Below, in pieces: positions 1,163 through 20,816 of a DNA stretch of 32,000 nt; the first letter of the stretch is position 1, and each line of letters starts with the position of its first letter. The translations under genes and the position numbers were made by a program. This stretch comes from Candidatus Saccharibacteria bacterium oral taxon 488 (GTDB lineage Bacteria > Patescibacteriota > Saccharimonadia > Saccharimonadales > Saccharimonadaceae). The notes beneath the pieces were generated by a model that saw only the letters and a list, made by a program, of their open reading frames with translations, did no database searches and had not been told where the DNA came from. The stretch is from contig CP047921.1 of NCBI GenBank assembly GCA_010202845.1, positions 420,001-452,000 on the forward strand. The letters are read 5' to 3'.

Positions 1163-1381
1163 CTAATCCTCTTTCTCTCCTTCTTCAATTCTAACCTTCA
1201 ACTCATGCAAAGCACTTCTAGGATCAATCGCCGCTGCAGCCATGGTGTGCAAGAGACCATCAATCTCACGTTCGACGACCTCACTTGGAGATATGCAGAG
1301 GCCTTTAAAGTTCTCTGGGTCCCACTTGCGCGGGCCAGTGTAATAACGACGCTCAGTTTCTTTTGGTACATCCTTTACCAT
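1163..1381 (-). CDS. 72-aa hypothetical protein embedded between rplR and rpsE
   Basis: MVKDVPKETERRYYTGPRKWDPENFKGLCISPSEVVEREIDGLLHTMAAAAIDPRSALHELKVRIEEGEKED. The heptamer TAGTATG forms both junctions (rplR stop/ORF start and ORF stop/rpsE start). GGAG lies 7 nt upstream. The ORF fills the gap exactly. Confidence 0.7.
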   Translation of the reverse strand: MVKDVPKETERRYYTGPRKWDPENFKGLCISPSEVVEREIDGLLHTMAAAAIDPRSALHELKVRIEEGEKED

Positions 1382-2275: not shown

Positions 2276-2311
2276 TACTCACCTTTCGTGTGATTTGATA
2301 TTAACCCTGGT

Positions 2312-2341
2312 ATTTTAGCATGGATTAGGGGTGAAATGCAA
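2312..2341 (-). promoter_or_regulatory. Candidate sigma70-type promoter for rplF-rplR-orf72-rpsE-rplO
   Basis: Minus strand TTGCAT, 18-nt spacer, TGCTAAAAT (extended -10). It lies about 35 nt upstream of the rplF SD. Confidence 0.5.
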
Positions 2342-2386
2342 GGTATAAGCTCAGTGATATAACGATTCAACTCTCGGGGACTTTGC

Positions 2387-3352
2387 CTACTTTTGAGGAT
2401 CAGTCCCAGCGGCGTTTTTCAAGAAGTCGAACATACGGATGGCCTTAGTGCTGAGTCTCGAGACGGTTTCAATTTTTCCTCCGGCACCCATCAGTTCATC
2501 GCGCCATATCTGCTGACGCTCTTTCATATCTGCCTCTAGCCCGTAAAAGCTTTCCAATACCTTTTCTTCCAAACCGCCAATTTCCTGGATAGATATTGTA
2601 TCAGTTGTAATCTGGATACCCGCTTCATTCAGCTGATCGGAGAGTTCCTCGTTCACAGATTCTGTTAGACCCGATAATACACGTGCAGCCCTCCTAAGTC
2701 CGTCAATTGTTTTGGCGGTAGCGGGCTGTGCGTCATTGTAGCCGACAATTCCATGCTCGTAGCTGCGCCCCATTCCCTTACATTTGAACTGACTGAGAGG
2801 CATTCCCTCCAGATAGGTGCCGAAGGTTAAGTCATATGTAGCGCCATCTCTATCGTGACTCACATCTACTGACGAACCTGCTACTAGATTAAATTCGCGC
2901 ACCTCCTTGAGTTCTTCTTTGAGAAGCCTGTATAGGTCATATTGCTTAGCATCTAAGCCTTTGAATACAAGATCATGCTGACCATCTGCACAATAATGGG
3001 CGAAGGTATTCTGAAGTGATAGCATATGCTCCGTCGGATCACCATTGATCACATCCAGCTCACGATAAGCTTCGCCTATGGTTGAAAAATCCTCCGAAAG
3101 GCCGTATGGTCGAATTTTCTTGGAGTCAAATACCGTTTGCCATAATTCAGTCCGTTTCTGGAAAAGATCATCATAATAGCCATGAATGGCGTTCATTTGA
3201 TCTGGCGTCAGCATCTTGATGTTTAATCCTGGACCCAATGTATTCACGATAGCAGCGGCACTGAGACGATTTGTCGTATCAGTATGATCAATTGGTCTTT
3301 CATGTATCTCAAGACGGCTGTCTTTGTCGTTTGGTTGTGCTAACTCGTGCAT
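2387..3352 (-). CDS. Hypothetical protein, 321 aa, predicted soluble, His/Asp-rich
   Basis: Long ORF with GGGAGA SD and a consensus promoter upstream. I recognise no family motif. Confidence 0.75.
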   Translation of the reverse strand: MHELAQPNDKDSRLEIHERPIDHTDTTNRLSAAAIVNTLGPGLNIKMLTPDQMNAIHGYYDDLFQKRTELWQTVFDSKKIRPYGLSEDFSTIGEAYRELDVINGDPTEHMLSLQNTFAHYCADGQHDLVFKGLDAKQYDLYRLLKEELKEVREFNLVAGSSVDVSHDRDGATYDLTFGTYLEGMPLSQFKCKGMGRSYEHGIVGYNDAQPATAKTIDGLRRAARVLSGLTESVNEELSDQLNEAGIQITTDTISIQEIGGLEEKVLESFYGLEADMKERQQIWRDELMGAGGKIETVSRLSTKAIRMFDFLKNAAGTDPQK

Positions 3353-3409
3353 GTGCTATTCTCCCAAAGAGTGAAAACTCCACTTTAATACAAATTATCT
3401 AGCCTCTCA

Positions 3410-3437
3410 ATTATACTATATGTGTGCCGTATGTCAA
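3410..3437 (-). promoter_or_regulatory. Near-consensus promoter for the 321-aa ORF
   Basis: Minus strand TTGACA, 16-nt spacer, TATAAT. Confidence 0.6.
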
Positions 3438-3549
3438 TATATACACAGTGCCGGTTTATGCTGAAGCTTTACTGACTAACCGCAAATTATTTTGGCAGTT
3501 TACTTACCCATAGGCGCGTATCATGAGGCCATCGGAAGTGTGCTAATAT

Positions 3550-4095
3550 ATGCTTGTGATCTCAAAATACCTCATCGTAAAAATAAGCTTCGTCGTCTTT
3601 TCTGTATCCACGGTGCTACTGTATATTTTGGCGCGCAATGGAACGATGACTGCGGTTTTTGGGCCGATACTAGCTTATGTTGTATACCTGCTCAATTTTG
3701 CGCTGCTTATCGCGTCCACACTTTTCTACATCTGGCAGTGCGCTCACAAAGACACGCCGCAGAGGGATCGCTTGGAGGCACTCGAGACATATGCGCGACT
3801 AGATAATGATGGCCTGTTGATTAGTGGCGCGGTAACTATTATCGAGATTGAGGCGGACAGCTTTTGGCGGCTCAAGGAATATGGCAAGACGATCACTATA
3901 CCTATCAACACCATGAATCCGCTGCGCCTGCCACCGGTGGGCACGCGGGCAACATTCGCGCCGATTGGCAATAAAGACAATCGAGTCATCGGCGTGATTA
4001 CCGAGATAACGAACGGGAGGATAACGGTCACGCCGGCACCGACAACCAAGCCTAGTAGACCGCAACTCACCGCCAAAACCACGACGTCCAACTGA
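3550..4095 (+). CDS. Hypothetical membrane protein, 181 aa: N-terminal TM helices plus a C-terminal beta-rich soluble domain
   Basis: Hydrophobic N-terminal half (FVVFSVSTVLLYIL, VFGPILAYVVYLLNFALLIASTLFYIW). TGCTAATAT (3541-3549) abuts ATG 3550, so GTG 3556 may be a leaderless start. The stop is TGA. Confidence 0.55.
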   Translation: MLVISKYLIVKISFVVFSVSTVLLYILARNGTMTAVFGPILAYVVYLLNFALLIASTLFYIWQCAHKDTPQRDRLEALETYARLDNDGLLISGAVTIIEIEADSFWRLKEYGKTITIPINTMNPLRLPPVGTRATFAPIGNKDNRVIGVITEITNGRITVTPAPTTKPSRPQLTAKTTTSN

Positions 4096-4615
4096 GCGGT
4101 ATCAGCATGAGCAAGGACGCTATCGCTAGCGTGATGTACGCCCCCAGTGCCGGCCGCGTCAACTGTGGCGTGTCATAATGATACACCCGCCGCAGCTCAT
4201 AATAATCCCACAAACGCCATGCACAAATCATTAATAAAACGGCAGAAATGAGCGACAGCATCCCACTAAGCTCAAAATGATACGTTTGATTACTAAAGTT
4301 AACAACAAACATGAACTCCGCCACCGCCAAACACGACCACCATCGCTTATCTCGTTTTAATCCCATTACCGCTACACAAAATCCCAACGGAATGATCAAT
4401 CGCACCACCGGCGTGTAGTCAAAAAATAGCTGCGTGTAATATTCAATCGGATATTTATTATTGCCTGCAGCCGCCACCAACGCACCTACGCCATAAAACA
4501 ATGTTAATAACACGATGGCAAACACAAACAGCCGCAACATATCATTATACAACACATCTCGCAGTGTGATGACGTCAGTTTTAGAAGTAGCGGGAAGCTT
4601 CAGAAACGGGATCAT
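4067..4615 (-). CDS. Hypothetical polytopic membrane protein, 182 aa, about 5 TM segments
   Basis: Repeated 20-aa hydrophobic stretches. Its 3' end overlaps the convergent plus-strand ORF by 29 nt. The stop is TGA. Confidence 0.7.
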   Translation of the reverse strand: MIPFLKLPATSKTDVITLRDVLYNDMLRLFVFAIVLLTLFYGVGALVAAAGNNKYPIEYYTQLFFDYTPVVRLIIPLGFCVAVMGLKRDKRWWSCLAVAEFMFVVNFSNQTYHFELSGMLSLISAVLLMICAWRLWDYYELRRVYHYDTPQLTRPALGAYITLAIASLLMLIPLSWTSWFWR

Positions 4616-4645
4616 TTTTAGCTACCGTTAGTCCGTGGACAGGTC

Positions 4646-4696
4646 CTTATGATTTTTCATAAGAATATCGTAGTTTGTGAGGTCGGTACGTGTCAA
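4646..4696 (-). promoter_or_regulatory. Candidate promoter plus an 18-bp palindrome upstream of the 182-aa membrane gene
   Basis: Minus strand TTGACA (4691-4696), 18-nt spacer, TACGAT (4667-4672), then CTTATGA-AAAA-TCATAAG (4646-4663). Confidence 0.45.
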
Positions 4697-4721
4697 GGCA
4701 ACGGGGCGTTTAGCCGAGAGA

Positions 4722-5327
4722 CTACTTCTCTTTTACCTCGCACCAGCCGTTGTTACCGTTAGGATAGCAGGTGATATCAAGATCCTTGCCGGTAAATTTT
4801 GTAAAGCCAGAATAGCTTACTGTACCCCAATCCTTCTTCGTTCCACCACAACCAACGGAAACTTTTATTTTTTCGCCGATCACGCCCACCATGTCTTTAG
4901 CATCAACGACTGACCGGTCGCTAGTCGGGGTAGTTTTCACCCAACCAGATTCTAGTGTTTCCTCATTCGCTCGTTCCACCCAAGCACCGACGAACTCATT
5001 ACCGTTGGCACAGGTGATTTTCCCGCCGATAGTGACGATGTCTCCTTCTTTCGGCGTAGTCTTTGTCGGACGCGAGGTTGGTTCTGACGGGGACGGCGTC
5101 ACGGTTTCAGTGACGCGTACGGTTTGCGTCGCCCGTGGCGTCTCGGTCGTTTGCGGATGCCTGTTCGTCGTGGTCACGGTAACAGTCGCTGGGGCTGGCT
5201 TGGCGTCCAATCCCGACAGGCCGCAGCCAGAGGCAAACAATGCCACTACGCCCATAAGGCTAGCTAGCGGCCGGTGTAAAACGTTACCAATTTTTTCGCT
5301 GATGGTGTCTGGGGATTTACGAGTCAT
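4722..5327 (-). CDS. Putative lipoprotein with a Thr/Pro-rich linker and a 4-Cys C-terminal domain
   Basis: Signal-like LASLMGVVALFASGC with a lipobox-like ASGC. Linker PATVTVTTTNRHPQTTETPRATQTVRVTETVTPSPSEPTSRPTKTTP. C-terminal domain carries Cys in ITCANG, VGCGG, ITCYP and GWCEV. Confidence 0.7.
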   Translation of the reverse strand: MTRKSPDTISEKIGNVLHRPLASLMGVVALFASGCGLSGLDAKPAPATVTVTTTNRHPQTTETPRATQTVRVTETVTPSPSEPTSRPTKTTPKEGDIVTIGGKITCANGNEFVGAWVERANEETLESGWVKTTPTSDRSVVDAKDMVGVIGEKIKVSVGCGGTKKDWGTVSYSGFTKFTGKDLDITCYPNGNNGWCEVKEK

Positions 5328-5571
5328 GATTATTCCTTTCTTGTGGTTGATTATCTAATAAGTCGCCGGATATTATAGCCTCGTAAATATGCGCTGCGAG
5401 ACCGGCTGCAGCAATTTTATCAACCGTGTCTCCCCTATATTTGCTGCCCTGTTTATTAATCTTGTTAACTTCATTACTTATCATGCAACTGACTCTGTGA
5501 TCTAGCTTCTTTTGAGTAGCGCGTCTCTCTTTTTGGATGTTAGACCACTTAATTTCTCGAGCTGTTTTGAG

Positions 5572-5895
5572 TCAATCACGCACAGCGCTTAGTCTGGCTA
5601 TAGTAGGCCTAATTTTAGCTATTTCACAAGGAGACTTGGGATTTTCAAGTATTTTCTCTAGTTTTACTATACTATCATCAATCTCTGCTATCTTGGTATC
5701 AATGCGATGTACCTCTTCTAGCTTATTTTTATCGTCGATAATCTCGCCAAGCAGAGCCTCAATTGAAGACTGGGCCTCAGGGTCACGATTCTTTGTACTG
5801 CACATATCTTTTATCACTGCTATAGGATGATGCCATAAAATAACCTTACTGGCAAGTAAAACGCTCTTGTGAAATGGCACGTTACCACGAGACAA
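5572..5895 (-). CDS. Hypothetical coiled-coil-like protein, 107 aa from a TTG start; possibly the 5' part of a disrupted 5317-5895 gene
   Basis: The ORF ends at TGA 5572-5574, but the same frame stays open for 84 more codons down to TAA 5317-5319. The start is uncertain: no SD at TTG 5895, and ATG 5805 (MCSTKNRD) is an alternative. Confidence 0.45.
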   Translation of the reverse strand: MSRGNVPFHKSVLLASKVILWHHPIAVIKDMCSTKNRDPEAQSSIEALLGEIIDDKNKLEEVHRIDTKIAEIDDSIVKLEKILENPKSPCEIAKIRPTIARLSAVRD

Positions 5896-5955
5896 TGATT
5901 AGATTTCACATCAGAGGCACAAGAATCCTCCGCCGTGTGCTATAGTAATATCATC

Positions 5956-6414
5956 ATGGATAAGGATTCTATTGAAACGCCGCCAACACCTCAGGGTGCT
6001 ACACCACCACAGAGTGAAGTGCCGCAATCTCAAGACGAAGCAACGAAACCACAAGACAGCACCACAAAGCGACGATGGCTGGCTCGGTTTGTCGATCGTT
6101 TGACGTGGTGGCAGGCGACAGCAATTATCGCCAGTATCTTCGCATTACCACCAGTGGCTGTTGCTGGTGTGATTGATAAGGGAGTGCCGCTTAATGGTTT
6201 TTTCGGTATTTATAATGGTTCATCATTTGATACTATTATTTTCATTCTGTGTTTGCTCGTCACACCACCGTTAAGCCCTCTGTGTGCACTGATGTTTGCT
6301 ACATACTTTGCCACGAGGCGAAAAGACTTAGCCACCCTGAAGCGCATGATGCCAGTCGCGCTAATCGCCTGTATATTTTTAGTTGCCCTGCTGTCTACAC
6401 TGCTGGGGTCTTAG
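5956..6414 (+). CDS. Hypothetical membrane protein with a Pro/Gln/Thr-rich N-terminus and 3-4 TM segments
   Basis: MDKDSIETPPTPQGATPPQSEVPQSQDEATKPQD followed by hydrophobic segments. TGCTATAGT (5938-5946) lies 9 nt before ATG 5956 with no SD. The ORF track starts at GTG 5935. Confidence 0.65.
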   Translation: MDKDSIETPPTPQGATPPQSEVPQSQDEATKPQDSTTKRRWLARFVDRLTWWQATAIIASIFALPPVAVAGVIDKGVPLNGFFGIYNGSSFDTIIFILCLLVTPPLSPLCALMFATYFATRRKDLATLKRMMPVALIACIFLVALLSTLLGS

Positions 6415-6444
6415 CTTGTTGTGCCGATGTATTTGATAGACAAC

Positions 6445-6485
6445 TAAAAGCGCCCGGAGATTATTTTCCCCGAGCGCTTTTTATT
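6445..6485. terminator. Bidirectional hairpin terminator between convergent orf159 and rpsH
   Basis: AAAAGCGCCCGG...CCGAGCGCTTTTTATT. A T-run follows on the plus strand and CTTTTAG on the minus strand. Confidence 0.65.
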
Positions 6486-6501
6486 GCTGACAAAGCGTAA
6501 T

Positions 6502-6903
6502 TTAATACACCTTCAGTAGCAATTCACCGCCAAGTTTCGCCTTGGCTGCTTCGGCACCAGTCATGACACCTTTTGAGGTTGAGATGAGTACTAGACCGCG
6601 GCCGCTTTTCACCTTTGGAATCTCGCTAGCGCCGACGTAAACACGACGACCTGGCTTTGAGACGCGGGTGATCTCGTTGATGGTGCTGTTGGTACCCTCT
6701 TCGTTGATAGTAACAACCAGCACGCCACGAGGCTTGGCGTCCTCTAGCTTAACATCTGCGAGGTAGCCGTTTTTGACTAATTGTTCAGCGATGACTTTTT
6801 TCATTTTGCTGGACGGAACACGAACTTCCGTCTTGCCAACCAGTTTCGCATTGCGAATGCGCGTCAGAAGGTCGGCGATTGGGTCTGTAGTTTGCATAGA
6901 CAT
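6502..6903 (-). CDS. rpsH: 30S ribosomal protein S8
   Basis: TDPIADLLTRIRNA motif. I place the start at ATG 6903 (MSMQTTDP), 8 nt after AAAGGAGA. The ORF track extends to 6930. Confidence 0.95.
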   Translation of the reverse strand: MSMQTTDPIADLLTRIRNAKLVGKTEVRVPSSKMKKVIAEQLVKNGYLADVKLEDAKPRGVLVVTINEEGTNSTINEITRVSKPGRRVYVGASEIPKVKSGRGLVLISTSKGVMTGAEAAKAKLGGELLLKVY

Positions 6904-6923: not shown

Positions 6924-7193
6924 TTACCAACTACTCTTTGTTATGCCTGGGATTTCACCCTTGGCTGCTTTTTCGCGGAAATTGATGCGGCTCAGACCAA
7001 ACTGGCGCATATAGCCGCGTGGACGGCCGGAAATGCTGTCGCGGTTCTTGTGCCTGGTTGGGCTCGAGTTGCGAGGCAATTTCTGCAAACCGTCGAGGTC
7101 GCCAAGTTCTTTCAATTTAGCGCGTTTGGCTGCAAACTTAGCTATCATCTTCAGGCGCTTTTTGTCGCGAGCGACCATTGATTTCTTAGCCAT
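6924..7193 (-). CDS. rpsN: 30S ribosomal protein S14, long form without the zinc-binding Cys motif
   Basis: [14 protein letters not shown]-terminus and [28 protein letters not shown]-terminus. GGAGGT SD 9 nt upstream. Confidence 0.95.
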
Positions 7194-7357
7194 TAATCAT
7201 TACCTCCGTCTAACTCAACTGTACGCTCATCATCTGGGATGCCCCAACCTTCTTGCTCGGGTGTCCAGTCCTCTGGATCAATCGCACCCCAACCTTCCTG
7301 TTCAGGTGTCCAGTCTGCATAGTGTTCACGATTGAGGCTATTAATAGTTTCGCTCAT
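7193..7357 (-). CDS. 54-aa acidic Trp-repeat micro-protein between rplE and rpsN, absent from the ORF track
   Basis: Hand translation gives [59 protein letters not shown] overlaps occur at both ends. AAAGGAGGTG SD lies 7 nt upstream. The internal repeat differs only at synonymous sites. Confidence 0.75.
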
Positions 7358-7941
7358 TACCTGACACCTCCTTTCTTCTCAAACGGCATGCCGAACTTCT
7401 CGAGCAAGGCCTTTGATGCTTCCTTGCTGCCGTTCTTGATGACAAATGTTACCTGCAACCCGTGCAGAATCTGCGTTTCTTCGAAGGTCAACTCTGGGAA
7501 AATTGACTGTTCGATGATGCCCAGGTTGTAGTTACCACCCTTGTCAAATTTCAGGCCAACGCCGTGGAAGTCGCGCACGCGTGGGAGCGCCACGTTGATC
7601 AGGCGATCCATGAACTCGTACATCCTGCCGCCGCGCAGCGTGACGCTCACGCCAATTGGCGCACCCATACCTTTACGGATGCTAAAGCCAGCGATTGACT
7701 TCTTTGCCTGGCGGGCAACTGGTGCCTGACCGGTGATCTTTGCAACGGTGTTTTTGACAATTTCAAAGTGACGCTTGTCATCTTTCTTTTTGCCGGTGCC
7801 AACGCTCACGATGATCTTTTCCAAAGCCGGCACTTGGTGCACGTTCTTTAGATCTAATTCGGCTTGCAGTTCCTTCAGGTATTTCTCCTGGTACAAGGCT
7901 TTCAAGCGAGGAGCTGGCACGACAATTTTCTTCTCTGCCAT
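7357..7941 (-). CDS. rplE: 50S ribosomal protein L5
   Basis: PRLKALYQEKY and NYNLGIIEQSIFPE motifs. TAATG coupling with rplX. Confidence 0.96.
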   Translation of the reverse strand: MAEKKIVVPAPRLKALYQEKYLKELQAELDLKNVHQVPALEKIIVSVGTGKKKDDKRHFEIVKNTVAKITGQAPVARQAKKSIAGFSIRKGMGAPIGVSVTLRGGRMYEFMDRLINVALPRVRDFHGVGLKFDKGGNYNLGIIEQSIFPELTFEETQILHGLQVTFVIKNGSKEASKALLEKFGMPFEKKGGVR

Positions 7942-12093: not shown

Positions 12094-12693
12094 TTACGCT
12101 TCCTCCTTACTCAGCCACTCAGTGATTACTGGCAGAGCTTTCGGGGTCATGACAATGGTATCCGCATTCAGAATGTGGTAGACGCTGAGGTAGCTCGCAC
12201 GAATTACCAATACGTTCTGGATGTTGTTTGTCGCACGCATTAATTCTGGCGTCTTTTCGTCAACGACGATCAGTACGCGGCGCTCAAACTTGTTGTCAGC
12301 CAAGAAGGTTGCGACCTCTTTGGTCTTGCCAGTCGTCTTGATGTCTTTGACGACGATCTTCTTCGCTTCATTGGCTACCGTCAAGGCTTGGCGAATTGCC
12401 ACTTTCTTGGCGGTTTTAGACAATTTTTTGGTGTAGTTTTCGTTGCCGCGCGGGCCAAAGACTACACCACCACCGTGCCAGATTGGGTTACGGGTTGAAC
12501 CGAAACGTGCCCGGCCAGTTCCCTTTTGCTTCCATGGTTTTTTACCACCACCGGAAACTTCACCGCGCTGCTTGGTGGTTGCGCTTGCTAGGCGGGCGTT
12601 TGCCAGGTAGCTGTCATATGCCAATTTCAACAGTTCGTGGTTTGGCACTTCAACAGCGAAAATGTCTTTAGGAAGTTTGGTTGATTCAGCCAT
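12094..12693 (-). CDS. rplD: 50S ribosomal protein L4
   Basis: GGGKKPWKQKGTGRARFGSTRNPIWHGGGVVFGP. Confidence 0.97.
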   Translation of the reverse strand: MAESTKLPKDIFAVEVPNHELLKLAYDSYLANARLASATTKQRGEVSGGGKKPWKQKGTGRARFGSTRNPIWHGGGVVFGPRGNENYTKKLSKTAKKVAIRQALTVANEAKKIVVKDIKTTGKTKEVATFLADNKFERRVLIVVDEKTPELMRATNNIQNVLVIRASYLSVYHILNADTIVMTPKALPVITEWLSKEEA

Positions 12694-13307
12694 TACTTGT
12701 TACCTCCTAAAATGATCAGCCCTTTTCGTGGCCCAGGGACAGCGCCCTTCACCCCGATCAGATTGGTCTCTGGGTCAACATATGCCACTTCCAGGTTCTT
12801 GACCGTAACACGCTCGTGACCCATGTGGCCAGCCATCGTCTTACCCTTGAACACTTTTTGTGGATACATTGAGCCAATTGAACCTGGCTTACGAGTATTA
12901 CCTTTACCACCGTGCGTCTTGCGGTGACGCTTAAAGTTGTGGCGTTTAATGGTTCCAGCGAAACCTTTACCTTTGCTGGTTCCGGTCGCATCGACAGAAT
13001 CGCCGACTTCGAACGCGGAAACGTTGATTTCATCGCCAACTTTGAGACCTTCAGGGATCTCGTCGACGCGGAATTCCCGAATGTGTTTCGGGGTCACTTG
13101 GGCTGGCTTGACGTGTCCAGCCACGGCCTTGCTCAGGTTCTTACCCTCTCCATAAGCGACCTGTACCGCATTGTAACCGTCGGTTTCGACAGTCTTCACC
13201 TGAGTCACGGTGACAGGGCCGGCTTGGATCAGCGTTACCGGAATGGCTTTGCCGTCTTCAGCCAAGAGCTGGGTCATACCAAGTTTGGTACCGAGAAGTG
13301 TTTTCAC
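12693..13307 (-). CDS. rplC: 50S ribosomal protein L3
   Basis: LGTKLGMTQL and FKRHRKTHGGKGNTRKPGSIG. GTG start after GGAGTGAGGA. Confidence 0.96.
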   Translation of the reverse strand: MKTLLGTKLGMTQLLAEDGKAIPVTLIQAGPVTVTQVKTVETDGYNAVQVAYGEGKNLSKAVAGHVKPAQVTPKHIREFRVDEIPEGLKVGDEINVSAFEVGDSVDATGTSKGKGFAGTIKRHNFKRHRKTHGGKGNTRKPGSIGSMYPQKVFKGKTMAGHMGHERVTVKNLEVAYVDPETNLIGVKGAVPGPRKGLIILGGNK

Positions 13308-13456
13308 TTTTCCTCACTCCCACTTAAATACTCCTGATGACGTGCGGTTTCTGGGTTCTGGGTGAGGCGTTCATGACAAGCGCTTTAATCATAACCAGAC
13401 CTGCTCATTCATCAAGGAGAACAGTTGATATTACGCGTAATAGAAATTACCTTGTG

Positions 13457-13486
13457 ATTGTAGCATATGTGGCGCTCTAAAGTCAA
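13457..13486 (-). promoter_or_regulatory. Candidate promoter of the rplC-to-rpsH operon
   Basis: Minus strand TTGACT, 18-nt spacer, TGCTACAAT (extended -10). It implies a leader of about 140 nt. Confidence 0.55.
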
Positions 13487-13557
13487 CGCTAGAAACACCT
13501 CTGGGGAGATAGCTTGGGCACAGTAGTCATACCCTATTTTATTATTTTATAAATAGT

Positions 13558-13573
13558 GCTACAATGTTAACCT
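13558..13573 (+). promoter_or_regulatory. Extended -10 promoter placed for a leaderless or near-leaderless transcript of orf241
   Basis: TGCTACAAT (13558-13565), then 8 nt, then ATG 13574. No SD. Confidence 0.45.
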
Positions 13574-14299
13574 ATGACTGTCAATATCTTGCAACGAGCC
13601 GGTGAGTTTGCTCGTTTTGTGGGTCAGAATAATCCAGATAAATTACTCGAGGTAAGAAACCCTGCGCGTAGATTACTTTTACAAGGAGCAATGGCTACAA
13701 AGTTACTGCCACTATTGTTTGGACGCTACTATAACCGTAAGGATTATTCTCCCATAGAACGCTTCGGTTTGAGTGTTATTGGTCGGGGCCACCACTCTAT
13801 CGCCGCCCATGATCCCAAGACAGATACAGTGATAAAATTTCATTATCGTCACTCTAATCACACCGAGGCAGAAATGGAGCAGATGGTGCGAGAGCTTGAA
13901 GGCAAACAACAAAAATGCTTATCAGCGCTTGGAGCAATCGCGGTCAGTCAAACGTACGAGATAGACAGTTCTCCGTACAATCCATCGCGGCCAATGATTA
14001 TCGCCCGCCAGCAATTTATACCGACGAAGCGCGCCATAATGTTAGCCGATATACCAAGACAAGGTATAAGGTCTATCCCCGATATCCGAGAGTTTATGGC
14101 TGGTAATACAAAAATGCTCTACGGACATAAGGCAGTGGCCGACATATTTGGACACGGGAATCTAGTAGTTAATGATGATAATAAACTTAAACTTGTCGAC
14201 CCGATACCACTAGTTGCCGAGGAAGCTTCCCAAGCACGATATCACGAGGCAAAAAACATTGTCAAAGAAATGTCCGACGCGTTAGTATGCAACCATTAA
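13574..14299 (+). CDS. Hypothetical protein, 241 aa, with motifs resembling an atypical (RIO/APH-like) protein-kinase fold
   Basis: VIGRGHHSIA (Gly-loop-like), TVIKFHYR (Lys), EAEMEQMVRELE (helix C-like), FGHGNLVVNDDNKLKLVDP (catalytic-loop and DFG-like, with Asn where the catalytic Asp is expected). The assignment rests on motifs only. Confidence 0.6.
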   Translation: MTVNILQRAGEFARFVGQNNPDKLLEVRNPARRLLLQGAMATKLLPLLFGRYYNRKDYSPIERFGLSVIGRGHHSIAAHDPKTDTVIKFHYRHSNHTEAEMEQMVRELEGKQQKCLSALGAIAVSQTYEIDSSPYNPSRPMIIARQQFIPTKRAIMLADIPRQGIRSIPDIREFMAGNTKMLYGHKAVADIFGHGNLVVNDDNKLKLVDPIPLVAEEASQARYHEAKNIVKEMSDALVCNH

Positions 14300-14359
14300 T
14301 ATGGCGCGAGCTACCCGCTCAATCCCGATAGCAAGCACTCTGAGGCCACCTACTAAATA

Positions 14360-14386
14360 CCGCCCCGATAAGGAGCGGCATTTTTT
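14360..14386. terminator. Hairpin terminator between convergent orf241 and fusA
   Basis: CCGCCCC-GATAA-GGAGCGG followed by CATTTTTT on the plus strand. The minus-strand U-tract is weaker (TATTTAG). Confidence 0.6.
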
Positions 14387-14406
14387 AGCATTGTTATCAC
14401 TACACC

Positions 14407-16494
14407 CTAGGCATTGCGCTTCTCGATGATCTCCTGCGCCACGTTTGGCGGTACTTCCTCGTACTGTGCTAGCTCCATGGTGCTGGCGGCGCGACCCTGC
14501 GACATCGAGCGGATGTCTGAGGTGTAGCCAAACATATTTGCTAGCGGCACAAAGGCCTTGACCAATTTGGCGCCGCCCATCAGATCTTCCATAGCGTCGA
14601 TACGGCCGCGGCGTGAATTCAGGTCGCCGATGATGTCGCCCATGAACTCTTCTGGGGTGGTGACTTCGACTTTCATGACTGGCTCAAGCAGAATTGGTGT
14701 GGCTTGCTTGATACCTTCACGAGCTGCCAACGAACCTGCTAGAGAGAAAGCTAGTTCTGAGGAGTCGACATCGTGGTACGAACCATCATACAGCGTCGCC
14801 TTGACATCAACCACTGGATAGCCAGCGATAACGCCGCCCTCCAACGTCTCTTTGATACCCTTCATCACAGCCGGGCGATATTCCTGAGGAACCACACCGC
14901 CTTTAATCTCGTCGATAAATTCAAAGCCTTTGCCAGCTTCGTTTGGCTCAAAGCGTACCCAAACGTCACCGTACTGACCGCGACCACCAGACTGCTTGGC
15001 GTGCTTACCCTGGACTTCGGCGCGGCCCTTGATTGACTCGCGGAAGGCCACTTGTGGCTCACCGATGTTTGCTTCAACCTTGAACTCGCGCTTCATGCGG
15101 TCGATCAAGATATCGAGGTGTAACTCACCCATGCCGGACATGATGGTCTGACCAGTTTCTTCGTCAGTGTGAATACGGAAGGTTGGGTCTTCCTCGGCCA
15201 GGCGCTGCAGGGCGAGTGCCATCTTTTCCTGGTCGGCCTTTGACTTTGGCTCAACGGCGATAGAAACTGGCGGCTCTGGGAACTCGATACTTTCCAGGGC
15301 AATTGGGTGTGCCGGGTCAGTCAGGGTGTTACCGGTACCGGTGTTCTTCAAACCAACCACCGCAGCGATGTCACCAGCACCAATCTTGTCAATCTCCTCA
15401 CGCTTGTCAGCGTGCATGCGCACGATACGGCCGATGCGCTCTTTGTCACCAGTGGTGGTATTCAGGACGTAGCTGCCCGAGCTCAAGACGCCGGAGTAGA
15501 CGCGGATGAAGATCAACTTACCAACAAATGGGTCAGTGGCGATCTTGAACGCCAGGGCGCTCATTGGCTCTTTCTCGTCTGGCTTGCGGCCCACTTCATC
15601 ACCAGTCTTTGGATTCTTACCCCAAATTTCGTCAACGTCCAATGGGCTTGGTAAGAAGTCAACCATCAAGTCAAGCAGCTTCTCGACGATGACGCCGCGG
15701 CCGTCACCGCCAGTCACTAGGTAAAAGTCGCCAGCCAGCACCCGCTTACGCAACGCAGATTTTAGTTCATCAATAGTAATTGCCTCTTCACCCTGGTCGA
15801 GGAACTTCATCATCAATTCATCGTCAGCTTCAACGGCATTCTCCACTAGCAGGGCGCGAGCATTCTTCGCCTTCTCCAGCATGTCGGCTGGGATCTCGCC
15901 GACCTTTAGCTCATGATCAGTGTAGTCATCGTAGGTGTAAGCTTTCATGTCGATGAGGTCAACCACGCCGTTGATAGTCTTTTCAAAACCAATTGGGATG
16001 TGAATCGGAAAGGCTTGTTTACTCAAGCGATTATGAATCGACTCTAGCGATTTCCAAAAGTCGCCGCCGGTCTGGTTGATCTTGTTAACGAAACAGATGC
16101 GTGGCACGCCGTATTTGTTAGCCTGGCGCCACACCGTCTCGGACTGAGCCTCGACACCCATTTTGCCGTCGAATACAGTAACAGCGCCATCGAGCACGCG
16201 CAGCGAACGCTCCACCTCAGCGGTAAAGTCGATGTGCCCTGGGGTGTCGATGATGTTAATCTTATGGTCTTTCCAGAAGCAGGTCACCGCCGCCGAAGTG
16301 ATGGTGATGCCGCGCTCCTTTTCTTGCGCCATCCAGTCGGTGGTAGCACCATCGCCATCACCCTTGACCACGCCAATTTTATGCGTCAAACCAGTGCGGT
16401 ACAAGATGCCCTCAGTGGTCGTCGTTTTACCGGCGTCAATATGGGCAATAATACCAATATTTCTAAAGTTTTGTAATGGAACGTTTGCTGCCAT
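14407..16494 (-). CDS. fusA: Elongation factor G
   Basis: [18 protein letters not shown]1 motif, DTPGHIDF G3 motif, 695 aa. Confidence 0.98.
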
Positions 16495-19367: not shown

Positions 19368-20816
19368 TCAGTTGTCGCTATTATTCTGATATCGCACGCC
19401 ACGTGCATCCATCAGTTTATCAAAGTCAGTACTTATCTCCTCAGTACGAGGTACACGACGCGACGTGTCGATATCAGCCTTGAAGAACTGGACTGTTACC
19501 AATGTGTAGCCGGGCTTATGCTCATGCCTATTACCAATATCAACGATTCTGTATGCATTTGCACCACGAGGTTTTATTCTGCGCACCTGATCAAGTGTAT
19601 AACGCAGAAAGAATTCCTCATCTACCATAAAAGTCTTACATTCCCCAACTGGAGTACATGATTTCACCAGATACTCCATGTCACTAGAGTCCATGTATGG
19701 TTTCTTTAGAGAATCTTTTGGATAACGTGTGAACGTCTTTCCTCCAATGTCACCCAGTCGCACAGGCGTAATCACTGACACATTCTCTCCATCAGTCGAC
19801 CGCATGAACCGTTCTGGGTCTTCAGATAGTATTTCTTCTGCTGTAGGTAGTTTGCCGATACCGGCTTCTATATCTGCTTCTTTTGGCACAGCCACAAAGT
19901 TACTAAAGGATCCTGGATCGGCAAAATATGGACTAATCAGCATCTCGTTTCGCCTAGCATACAGTGCTTGAAAATCTCCAATACCAAGTATATGCGCCGC
20001 GGCATTCCTCCCTAAAGCAGCAATTCGTTCCATATGTTCTGTATATGATAGATGACGAGGCATTGGTTCGCTTAAATCATGCCCCCTGGTCTCGAAGACA
20101 GGTTCAATAATGTGCACAGGATCTCCATATATCAGTCTCCCGGCTCGTCTCAATACGTCTTCTGCTAGGTTTGCCTGCGTACATAGATATCTACATGCCT
20201 GCGAGCCCAAACGCATCCTTGTCAGCGGATCACGCATAGCCTGATGTAGGTCGAGTAGCCTCTCACCATTCGCAGCGAGGCATCTCTTCCTTACAAAATT
20301 CTCATAGTCTACTTTATCAAGCACGGTTACTTCTGGAATATTGACATCATCCTTATATACCTGCCCAGCCGAGGGAACAAAAGCATCGACATCAATAACC
20401 TTCACCTCCCCGTAGTCACCATTTTCTAGACTACGAAACTGCTCCGTACTAATTACCCCTCCTGGGTTTTCTTGAAGATCATGGTCATAGGCCTCCGTGA
20501 TTCCATCTAACGTAGACAGCGGACCAACACCATGAGCCACGATGATTTTTTGGCGATGATCAGCACCCGTTCCGACATATTCACCACTTGCACTAGTGTA
20601 AGCCTGATTCCATGCCCTCATGAGCGGCACTTCATCCCTCCCCATTTTACCGTGATGATTTCCATAGAAAGACTTATGAGCCGCCTCTCTTGCTTCAATG
20701 ATCTCCGGGAGTGTCGCGATATGCCCTCCTTCACCAGCATACCGCAGGGCGTATTTCCAAGCAGTTTCTATATCCCGATTTCCTGCTGACATCAATGGAC
20801 GACCGCGTTCTGACAT
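19368..20816 (-). CDS. Hypothetical protein, 482 aa
   Basis: Long ORF with GGAG SD and a consensus promoter. It looks more AT-rich than the flanking rpoC and rpsL. I recognise no motif. Confidence 0.75.
   Translation of the reverse strand: MSERGRPLMSAGNRDIETAWKYALRYAGEGGHIATLPEIIEAREAAHKSFYGNHHGKMGRDEVPLMRAWNQAYTSASGEYVGTGADHRQKIIVAHGVGPLSTLDGITEAYDHDLQENPGGVISTEQFRSLENGDYGEVKVIDVDAFVPSAGQVYKDDVNIPEVTVLDKVDYENFVRKRCLAANGERLLDLHQAMRDPLTRMRLGSQACRYLCTQANLAEDVLRRAGRLIYGDPVHIIEPVFETRGHDLSEPMPRHLSYTEHMERIAALGRNAAAHILGIGDFQALYARRNEMLISPYFADPGSFSNFVAVPKEADIEAGIGKLPTAEEILSEDPERFMRSTDGENVSVITPVRLGDIGGKTFTRYPKDSLKKPYMDSSDMEYLVKSCTPVGECKTFMVDEEFFLRYTLDQVRRIKPRGANAYRIVDIGNRHEHKPGYTLVTVQFFKADIDTSRRVPRTEEISTDFDKLMDARGVRYQNNSDN

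Follow-up and report, generated by a model that had tools for sequence, protein, structure and literature searches.

Between the genes for ribosomal proteins L5 (rplE) and S14 (rpsN), some members of the Saccharibacteria oral-taxon-488 clade carry a 54-codon open reading frame (ORF) that their close relatives go without. We favor, with a probability of about 60% and on the basis of sequence comparison, the reading that this micro-ORF is an accessory, translationally coupled micro-gene cassette placed within the rplE/rpsN TAATG overlap, and that it would encode a disordered acidic peptide acting in trans. In the genomes compared, the micro-gene is accessory and polymorphic for presence and absence, also among strains of oral taxon 488, and it is not a core part of the ribosome.

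The micro-ORF and its coupled junctions

The features of the locus, all on the minus strand of the window (the 32,000-nt stretch of DNA analyzed here), are as follows.

7357..7941 (-), rplE, encoding uL5 of 194 aa (Pfam Ribosomal_L5 and L5_C; sequence)
7365..7374 (-), Shine-Dalgarno (SD) sequence AAAGGAGGTG of the micro-ORF, within the last rplE codons
7193..7357 (-), micro-ORF of 54 codons encoding 54 aa, QHU93839.1, annotated as a hypothetical protein
7271..7315 (-), repeat unit 1 (15 aa), partly or wholly missing in 39-aa single-repeat alleles
7226..7270 (-), repeat unit 2 (15 aa), with the ERT...DGG tail the most conserved part of the family
7202..7207 (-), GGAGGT, replacement SD for rpsN, in the last micro-ORF codons (Gly-Gly)
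6924..7193 (-), rpsN, encoding uS14 of 89 aa (Pfam Ribosomal_S14)
6502..6903 (-), rpsH, encoding uS8, the final gene of this transcription-unit segment (sequence; PF00410 in relatives)
6446..6481 (-), terminator-like hairpin of 15 pairs directly 3' of rpsH (terminator search)

The position of the hairpin just past rpsH places the micro-ORF three cistrons from the probable end of the transcript. A sequence-only reading of this DNA had claimed that a 54-aa ORF on the minus strand fills the 163-nt gap between rplE and rpsN, and both its coordinates and its translation proved exact. The identical peptide is deposited in GenBank as QHU93839.1 (GWK78_02240, Candidatus Saccharibacteria bacterium oral taxon 488), where its neighbors on the 853-kb contig are QHU93840.1 (L5) and QHU93838.1 (S14); the micro-ORF is already annotated, yet uncharacterized. 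About 190 contigs from independent assemblies, complete genomes among them, carry it, and it is thus not an assembly artefact. CP047919.1 is a further carrier genome of oral taxon 488. One carrier contig is labeled human oral metagenome, and the single metagenome match is a near-identical 54-aa copy.

Both ends of the micro-ORF overlap the neighboring gene by one base, as the sequence-only reading had described. The rplE TAA (7359..7357) shares base 7357 with the micro-ORF ATG, and the micro-ORF TAA (7195..7193) shares base 7193 with the rpsN ATG, giving TAATG in each case. The seven other boundaries for which this junction had been reported (571, 7941, 8261, 8937, 9143, 11772 and 12693) are all TAATG as well, each with a GGAG-type SD 8–10 nt upstream. 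The strong SD described for the micro-ORF, AAAGGAGGTG, indeed lies in the rplE tail 7 nt ahead of the ATG. The GGT within this SD is specific to the window, with GGC present in other carriers and in the non-carriers that were inspected, and we rejected a carrier-linked polymorphism in the SD because other carriers do not have the GGT.

At its 3' end the insertion consists of GGAGGT and 8 further nt, followed by the rpsN ATG. GGAGG thereby ends 9 nt before the rpsN ATG, with identical spacing in cassette-free genomes. Since this ancestral spacing is reproduced, the cassette is seamless for rpsN translation. The micro-ORF has what is expected of a translationally coupled cistron, namely an overlapping or abutting start and an SD within the upstream gene, with the same arrangement repeated at its downstream boundary. 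These features support the conclusion, drawn from the layout of the junctions, that the micro-ORF starts and stops in a way suited to coupling its translation to that of the ribosomal genes.

A 13-nt direct repeat (11/13 identical) was noticed between the rplE-stop/ORF-start junction at 7351..7363 (CAGGTAATGAGCG) and an ORF-internal segment at 7224..7236 (CAGATGATGAGCG). It is probably due to chance, but could be a trace of the cassette's construction. A tandem duplication spanning the junction, which would give TAATG at both ends together with an L5-like tail, is unsupported, though an old event would be erased. When aligned locally to the 3' end of rplE and the 5' end of rpsN, the ORF scored no better than shuffles did, and the same was true of a 72-aa ORF located elsewhere in the operon (described below).

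Presence and absence among relatives

We retrieved the rplE locus from the 80 nearest species-representative genomes, in which L5 identity ranges from 99% down to 74%. In 79 of these 80, rplE and rpsN are joined directly by a single TAATG (for example ...GGAGGCGTCAGGTAATGGCTAAG), and one representative (L026) is the sole carrier. The non-carriers include about 29 representatives whose L5 is 98–99% identical; a complete oral-taxon-488 genome, CP128407.1, is likewise a non-carrier. Compared with the fused junction, the window has a 164-nt insertion, made up of the ORF plus one TAATG, with TAATG on either side. The cassette thus measures 164 nt, or 119 nt in the single-repeat (39-aa) alleles. We treat the fused TAATG junction as ancestral and the insertion-bearing rplE/rpsN junction as the putatively derived state.

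The sequence-only reading had proposed a lineage-specific factor made in step with ribosomal proteins. One part of this stands, as the ORF recurs between rplE and rpsN in other Saccharibacteria; the other does not, as the ORF is not lineage-wide. The lineage-wide conservation of a bona fide ribosomal protein is lacking (79/80 representatives without the ORF and six protein clusters in total), whereas the micro-ORF does resemble one in being encoded within the operon, with TAATG overlaps and SDs at both ends. Carriers and non-carriers are 97–99% identical in their L5 and S14 proteins, and no co-adaptation of the neighbors is visible. The peptide cannot be an obligatory ribosome component, and the ribosome-associated, assembly or regulatory role suggested for it is putative.

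Homologues and purifying selection

A word-indexed search covering 5.8 billion protein clusters, which represent about 15 billion sequences clustered at 90% identity, returned four clusters, all at the rplE/rpsN junction and one of them the 39-aa single-repeat allele. Two distant members, P0005 (55 aa, from lineage L093; MNAEGLVVCDRHHDWTPEDEGWGRIDPQDWMPEDEDWGTPNNERTIVIEPDGGDK) and P0006 (46 aa, from lineage L095), came from a full HMMER scan of 1.84 billion representatives, and the whole family therefore amounts to six clusters at 90% identity among 5.8 billion. Both distant members occupy the rplE/rpsN junction, with GGAGGT...TAATG at their 3' ends. In nucleotide sequence, the flanking ribosomal genes of L093 and L095 share only 70–77% identity with the window, with each other and with all 80 representatives. 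The upstream junction differs by lineage (TAATG in the window, ATGA in L093 and TAATATG in L095), and the downstream junction is TAATG, with GGAGGT 9 nt upstream of rpsN, in all three.

The sequence-only reading had looked to two sequence comparisons for its coding claim, recurrence of the ORF at this junction and dN/dS across orthologues. Where the gene exists, both came out in its favor: conserved ORFs of 55 aa and 46 aa occupy the same junction in two divergent Saccharibacteria lineages, and dN/dS among the window, L093 and L095 is well below 1. Specifically, pairwise pN among the three lineages is 0.20–0.26 as against a pS of 0.55–0.95 (Nei-Gojobori), with pS saturated in two of the three pairs, and dN/dS between the window and L093 is 0.23–0.30. 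The frame is open in 30 of 30 carrier loci; because an open frame of equal length also arises in about 4% of same-base shuffles, openness alone is weak evidence for coding. Fifteen alignment columns are invariant, including D30, W31, P33, E34, E36, W38, P41, E44-R45-T46, E48 and D50-G51-G52, and conservation is densest in the last ~27 residues. The terminal Gly-Gly is encoded by the rpsN SD, and the invariance of D-G-G may for this reason be a nucleotide constraint. By its substitution pattern, the micro-ORF is a genuine protein-coding gene under purifying selection and not a spacer.

The conserved core of the ORF has a between-lineage similarity of 0.69–0.77, about equal to that of the surrounding ribosomal genes, which indicates that the family is old and that the three copies are not recent mutual transfers. 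Recent transfer among the three deep lineages was also rejected for want of an identity peak around the cassette.

The same substitution data bear on the possibility that the cassette is a neutral or selfish insertion with a functionless peptide, kept only because its open frame, SD and TAATG spare the coupling of rpsN and rpsH. Survivorship could produce such a pattern, since any insert at this site must stay open, and 4% of shuffles do so; moreover, most genomes go without the cassette with no visible consequence, and the 72-aa ORF between rplR and rpsE (pN/pS 3.3) has the appearance of such a case. It would not, however, explain a pN of 0.20–0.26 against near-saturated pS across three deep lineages, the invariant W, P, E and ERT, or repeat cores that are identical in protein but synonymously saturated, and the cassette has no other genomic copies, inverted repeats or transposon hallmarks. 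We regard this explanation as very improbable.

An RNA element was rejected because the cassette has no Rfam match, folds no better than shuffled sequences (z = -0.9) and contains no inverted repeats or palindromes. Autoregulatory mRNA structures are frequent in ribosomal operons (PMC3616713), which would speak for a non-coding regulatory RNA or spacer, such as a leader bound by a ribosomal protein, in which the ORF is incidental. Against this, the protein is conserved despite saturation at synonymous sites, and no promoter or terminator match was obtained within the cassette. The chance that the ORF is incidental in this way is close to negligible.

Repeats, composition and predicted structure of the peptide

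The peptide contains two copies of a 10-aa core spaced 45 nt apart, which is also the length of the repeat unit. As had been claimed, the two copies differ at four DNA positions, all of them synonymous (CCT/CCC, GAA/GAG, CAG/CAA and GGT/GGC). By the Nei-Gojobori count, 4 of 5.3 synonymous sites differ and 0 of 24.7 non-synonymous sites do, so the argument of the sequence-only reading that this pattern reflects selection on the peptide is correct. Its tally of charged residues also held, at 7 Asp and 9 Glu with 2 Arg and no Lys. The computed net charge is -14.4 at pH 7 for a product of ~6.2 kDa with four Trp and four Pro, and the basic RNA-binding composition typical of most small ribosomal proteins is not found in it. 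AlphaFold2, run with the family alignment, returned low-confidence coil (mean pLDDT 52, pTM 0.14), and from this model the peptide is probably unstructured or intrinsically disordered. Across the family, a variable N-terminus is combined with one or two motif copies and a conserved W/P/E pattern, a layout suggestive of a disordered acidic peptide that carries a short linear motif.

A short acidic ORF ahead of rpsN might alternatively work in cis, as a nascent peptide that arrests the ribosome or destabilizes it intrinsically and thereby tunes S14/S8 output relative to L5. Intrinsic ribosome destabilization is described as being triggered by negatively charged stretches interspersed with prolines (10.1101/2021.02.02.429294; PMC9718836), and the micro-ORF peptide is D/E-rich with interspersed P. 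Its conserved last ~27 residues correspond to about one exit-tunnel length, and its stop codon overlaps the rpsN start. In these respects it resembles MgtL-type leader, arrest or destabilization peptides, which are likewise short D/E/P-rich ORFs that directly precede the regulated gene and overlap its start. The micro-ORF departs from them in its position within the operon instead of in a 5' leader, and in the peptide itself. On inspection of the aligned family, the longest D/E run is three residues and no SecM/TnaC/MgtL-like or other known arrest motif is present. In L093 the interval between motif and stop differs by 2 residues, and the motif copy number is either 1 or 2, so that neither spacing nor copy number is fixed. 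Furthermore, the invariant Trp residues would be left unexplained, and there is no mRNA structure for a stall to remodel (z = -0.9). Action in cis consequently appears improbable to us.

Profile searches of Pfam, NCBIfam, PADLOC and PDB with the micro-ORF peptide gave no match, and PHROG gave chance-level matches only (E ~0.5–1.4). No paper on the micro-ORF or on Saccharibacteria ribosome composition was found in the literature. The family is new and uncharacterized; as a kind, small coupled cistrons are already known.

Variation and probable spread within the oral-taxon-488 clade

The 30 carrier loci resolve into nine DNA haplotypes. Segregating sites in the clade cassettes comprise 6 synonymous and 10 non-synonymous ones, against a neutral expectation of ~1:4. 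Within the clade, pN/pS is ~0.3–0.4 in the ORF versus 0.03 in the flanking genes, and about 15 amino-acid variants of the peptide segregate. Constraint on the peptide is therefore far weaker than on the ribosomal proteins. Two distinct single-repeat alleles exist, one with the codons of copy 1 and the other with those of copy 2, which means that a repeat unit was lost on more than one occasion, unless one of these alleles represents the ancestral form. Codon choice in the micro-ORF is not ribosomal-like, with a GC3 of 0.38 versus 0.49–0.66 in the ribosomal genes.

Carriers and non-carriers are interspersed in a tree of the flanking sequences. Carriers occur on flanking haplotypes that differ to within ~20 nt of the cassette, and the genes 3' of rpsH vary between carriers. 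Among carriers, synonymous divergence of the flanks is 0.10–0.29, and the cassette averages 0.33 of that expectation. An initial view of the insert as near-identical among carriers, and hence very recent, was softened when further haplotypes showed synonymous diversity of about one third of that of the flanks. This combination of diverse flanking haplotypes with a cassette of reduced synonymous diversity is in keeping with spread by recombination. The simplest reading of these sequence data would be that the cassette entered the clade after the flank diversity had arisen and then moved by homologous recombination; alternatively, it may have been present since ancient times and then undergone many precise losses.

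A mobile-element, phage or plasmid origin was rejected, as the viral contigs and the phage and plasmid collections searched held no copy of the micro-ORF and no second copy of the cassette was found in the window or in 92 loci. Dispersed copies of the MITE/RPE-like kind were absent from the same window and loci, and every carrier contig whose surroundings were read has the ORF at rplE/rpsN.

The patchy, strain-variable distribution and recombination-like spread, the atypical codon usage, the small and very acidic product and the hypervariable accessory island that starts just past rpsH in carrier genomes would all suit a function in conflict or immunity. The peptide would then be an acidic decoy that shields a target, for example the translation machinery, from a toxin, a phage or a host factor, and the operon would be an always-on expression site. 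Other observations make this unlikely in our judgment. The neighbors of the micro-ORF are rplE and rpsN and no cognate toxin adjoins it, neither PADLOC nor Pfam gave a match and those to PHROG are at chance level, there is no phage or plasmid copy, and the ORF is under strong purifying selection with no sign of diversifying selection.

Other junction micro-ORFs and the neighborhood of the operon

Two further small ORFs occupy ribosomal-gene junctions. In the window, a 72-aa ORF (1163..1381, minus strand; MVKDVPKETERRYYTGPRKWDPENF...RIEEGEKED) fills the gap between rplR and rpsE, with TAGTATG at both ends. It is also present at rplR/rpsE in a Nanosynbacter genome, whereas in 10 relatives without it rplR and rpsE are fused. 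The protein collection holds six clusters of it only. With 12 non-synonymous versus 1 synonymous change (pN/pS 3.3), it gives no sign of purifying selection and, as judged from these counts, appears either not to be selected as a protein or to be read in another frame. In two Saccharibacteria MAGs, a 35-aa hydrophobic ORF (MDNLAMWLLPVVALLVILIALFVIGSDGKSKKEKK) sits at the rplX/rplE junction (about 2391..2498 of locus L079 and the corresponding position of L080). It has its own SD, begins at TAGCATG or TAGTATG, is followed by TAGTATG at the rplE start, has a pN/pS of 0.16, and is missing from all other loci compared. It is predicted to be a membrane-type peptide.

Like the micro-ORF, both of these ORFs fill a stop/start junction, repeat the junction motif at both ends, provide an SD for the downstream gene and have close relatives without them; unlike in these shared features, their sequences are unrelated to that of the micro-ORF. 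That unrelated micro-ORFs are found at other ribosomal junctions means that location says little about function, and the inference from position to a ribosomal role is weakened accordingly. It suggests instead that the coupled junctions of the operon are permissive, strongly expressed and recombination-friendly sites.

Several other peculiarities of the region were recorded. Between rpsH and rplF, ~4.2 kb (window 2276..6501) interrupt the spc gene order, with 5–6 ORFs on both strands and no significant Pfam match. Close relatives differ in what this island contains (Ham1p-like/CYTH, NUDIX, Abhydrolase_11 and unknowns), which marks it as a hypervariable site. Neither rpsJ (S10) nor tuf is present in the interval 13308..14406 between fusA (14407..16494, minus strand) and rplC (12693..13307, minus strand), which holds an opposite-strand ORF of 241 aa (13574..14299) with no NCBIfam match. 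A 482-aa ORF (19368..20816, minus strand), also with no NCBIfam match, is an unusual occupant of the space between rpoC and rpsL. Finally, in the complete genome of Ca. Minimicrobia vallesae (NZ_CP076459.1; locus L063), tblastn aligns only residues 1–79 of S14 at 75% identity, as compared with 89/89 residues at 97% in neighboring genomes; its rpsN may have a frameshift or a divergent C-terminus.

Proposed mechanism and comparison with known systems

Under the reading that we favor, ribosomes finishing L5 would re-initiate on the micro-ORF, whose start lies on the rplE stop and whose SD lies in the rplE tail, and such termination-reinitiation would yield the peptide at roughly ribosomal-protein levels. 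The cassette's own GGAGGT SD and its second TAATG would preserve the coupled translation of S14 and S8. The ~6 kDa acidic, disordered peptide would act in trans via a short linear motif that it contains once or twice, D-W-x-P-E-x-E-x-W-x-x-P-[DN]-[DN]-E-R-T, and this motif would dock on a basic or hydrophobic surface of a partner. For that partner, a newly made ribosomal protein or the ribosome surface is the most economical candidate, which we put forward tentatively. A more specific form of the proposal seems doubtful to us: that the peptide is a strain-variable, stoichiometric partner of the translation apparatus, either bound to the ribosome as an optional acidic subunit or acting for a basic ribosomal protein, uS14 for example, as its dedicated chaperone or mimic, and that stop/start junctions of ribosomal genes are landing pads for micro-gene exchange across species. 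Between lineages, the cassette would move by homologous recombination with the ultra-conserved ribosomal genes as homology arms, a route that we propose because the gene ends are conserved and Saccharibacteria are reported to be naturally competent (PMC10633639).

Parts of this arrangement have parallels elsewhere, and the differences are as instructive as the likenesses. Archaeal spc-type operons contain extra small cistrons, the genes later identified as eS4, eL32 and eL19, that are like the micro-ORF in being small additional ORFs co-expressed between the universal spc ribosomal-protein genes. Their products, however, are basic, conserved across archaea and eukaryotes, and structural components of the ribosome, whereas the micro-ORF peptide is acidic (net -14), predicted to be disordered and missing in 79/80 related species. 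The docking proposed for the peptide is analogous to that of the acidic C-terminal tips of SSB and Hfq and of eukaryotic chaperones of single ribosomal proteins, in which short acidic or aromatic disordered segments bind basic RNA- or DNA-binding surfaces. The analogy is functional only, as there is no sequence relationship and the known segments are tails of larger or folded proteins; we know of no example of a free-standing bacterial acidic docking peptide encoded inside a ribosomal operon. Rickettsia palindromic elements are small in-frame insertions tolerated in conserved genes, and they share with the cassette a short insert in a conserved locus, preservation of frame and expression, and a patchy distribution among relatives. 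In contrast to these elements, the cassette is single-copy and confined to one site, has no palindrome or terminal inverted repeats, forms its own cistron and not an extension of a host protein, and is under clear purifying selection.

Ribosomal-protein operons are regarded as the least changeable part of bacterial genomes and serve as phylogenetic markers, and here a selected micro-gene appears to be gained, lost and exchanged inside one such operon, in ultra-small bacteria living as epibionts in the human mouth. Junction cassettes of this sort can be overlooked or mishandled by gene callers and marker-gene pipelines. Among sequenced oral-taxon-488 genomes, some have the cassette and others do not, and natural-transformation genetics is available in the phylum. 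If the peptide does bind the ribosome or a ribosomal protein, it would represent strain-level ribosome heterogeneity or a dedicated bacterial ribosomal-protein chaperone; if it does not, coupled stop/start junctions would still be sites that host and express foreign micro-ORFs while leaving the operon intact.
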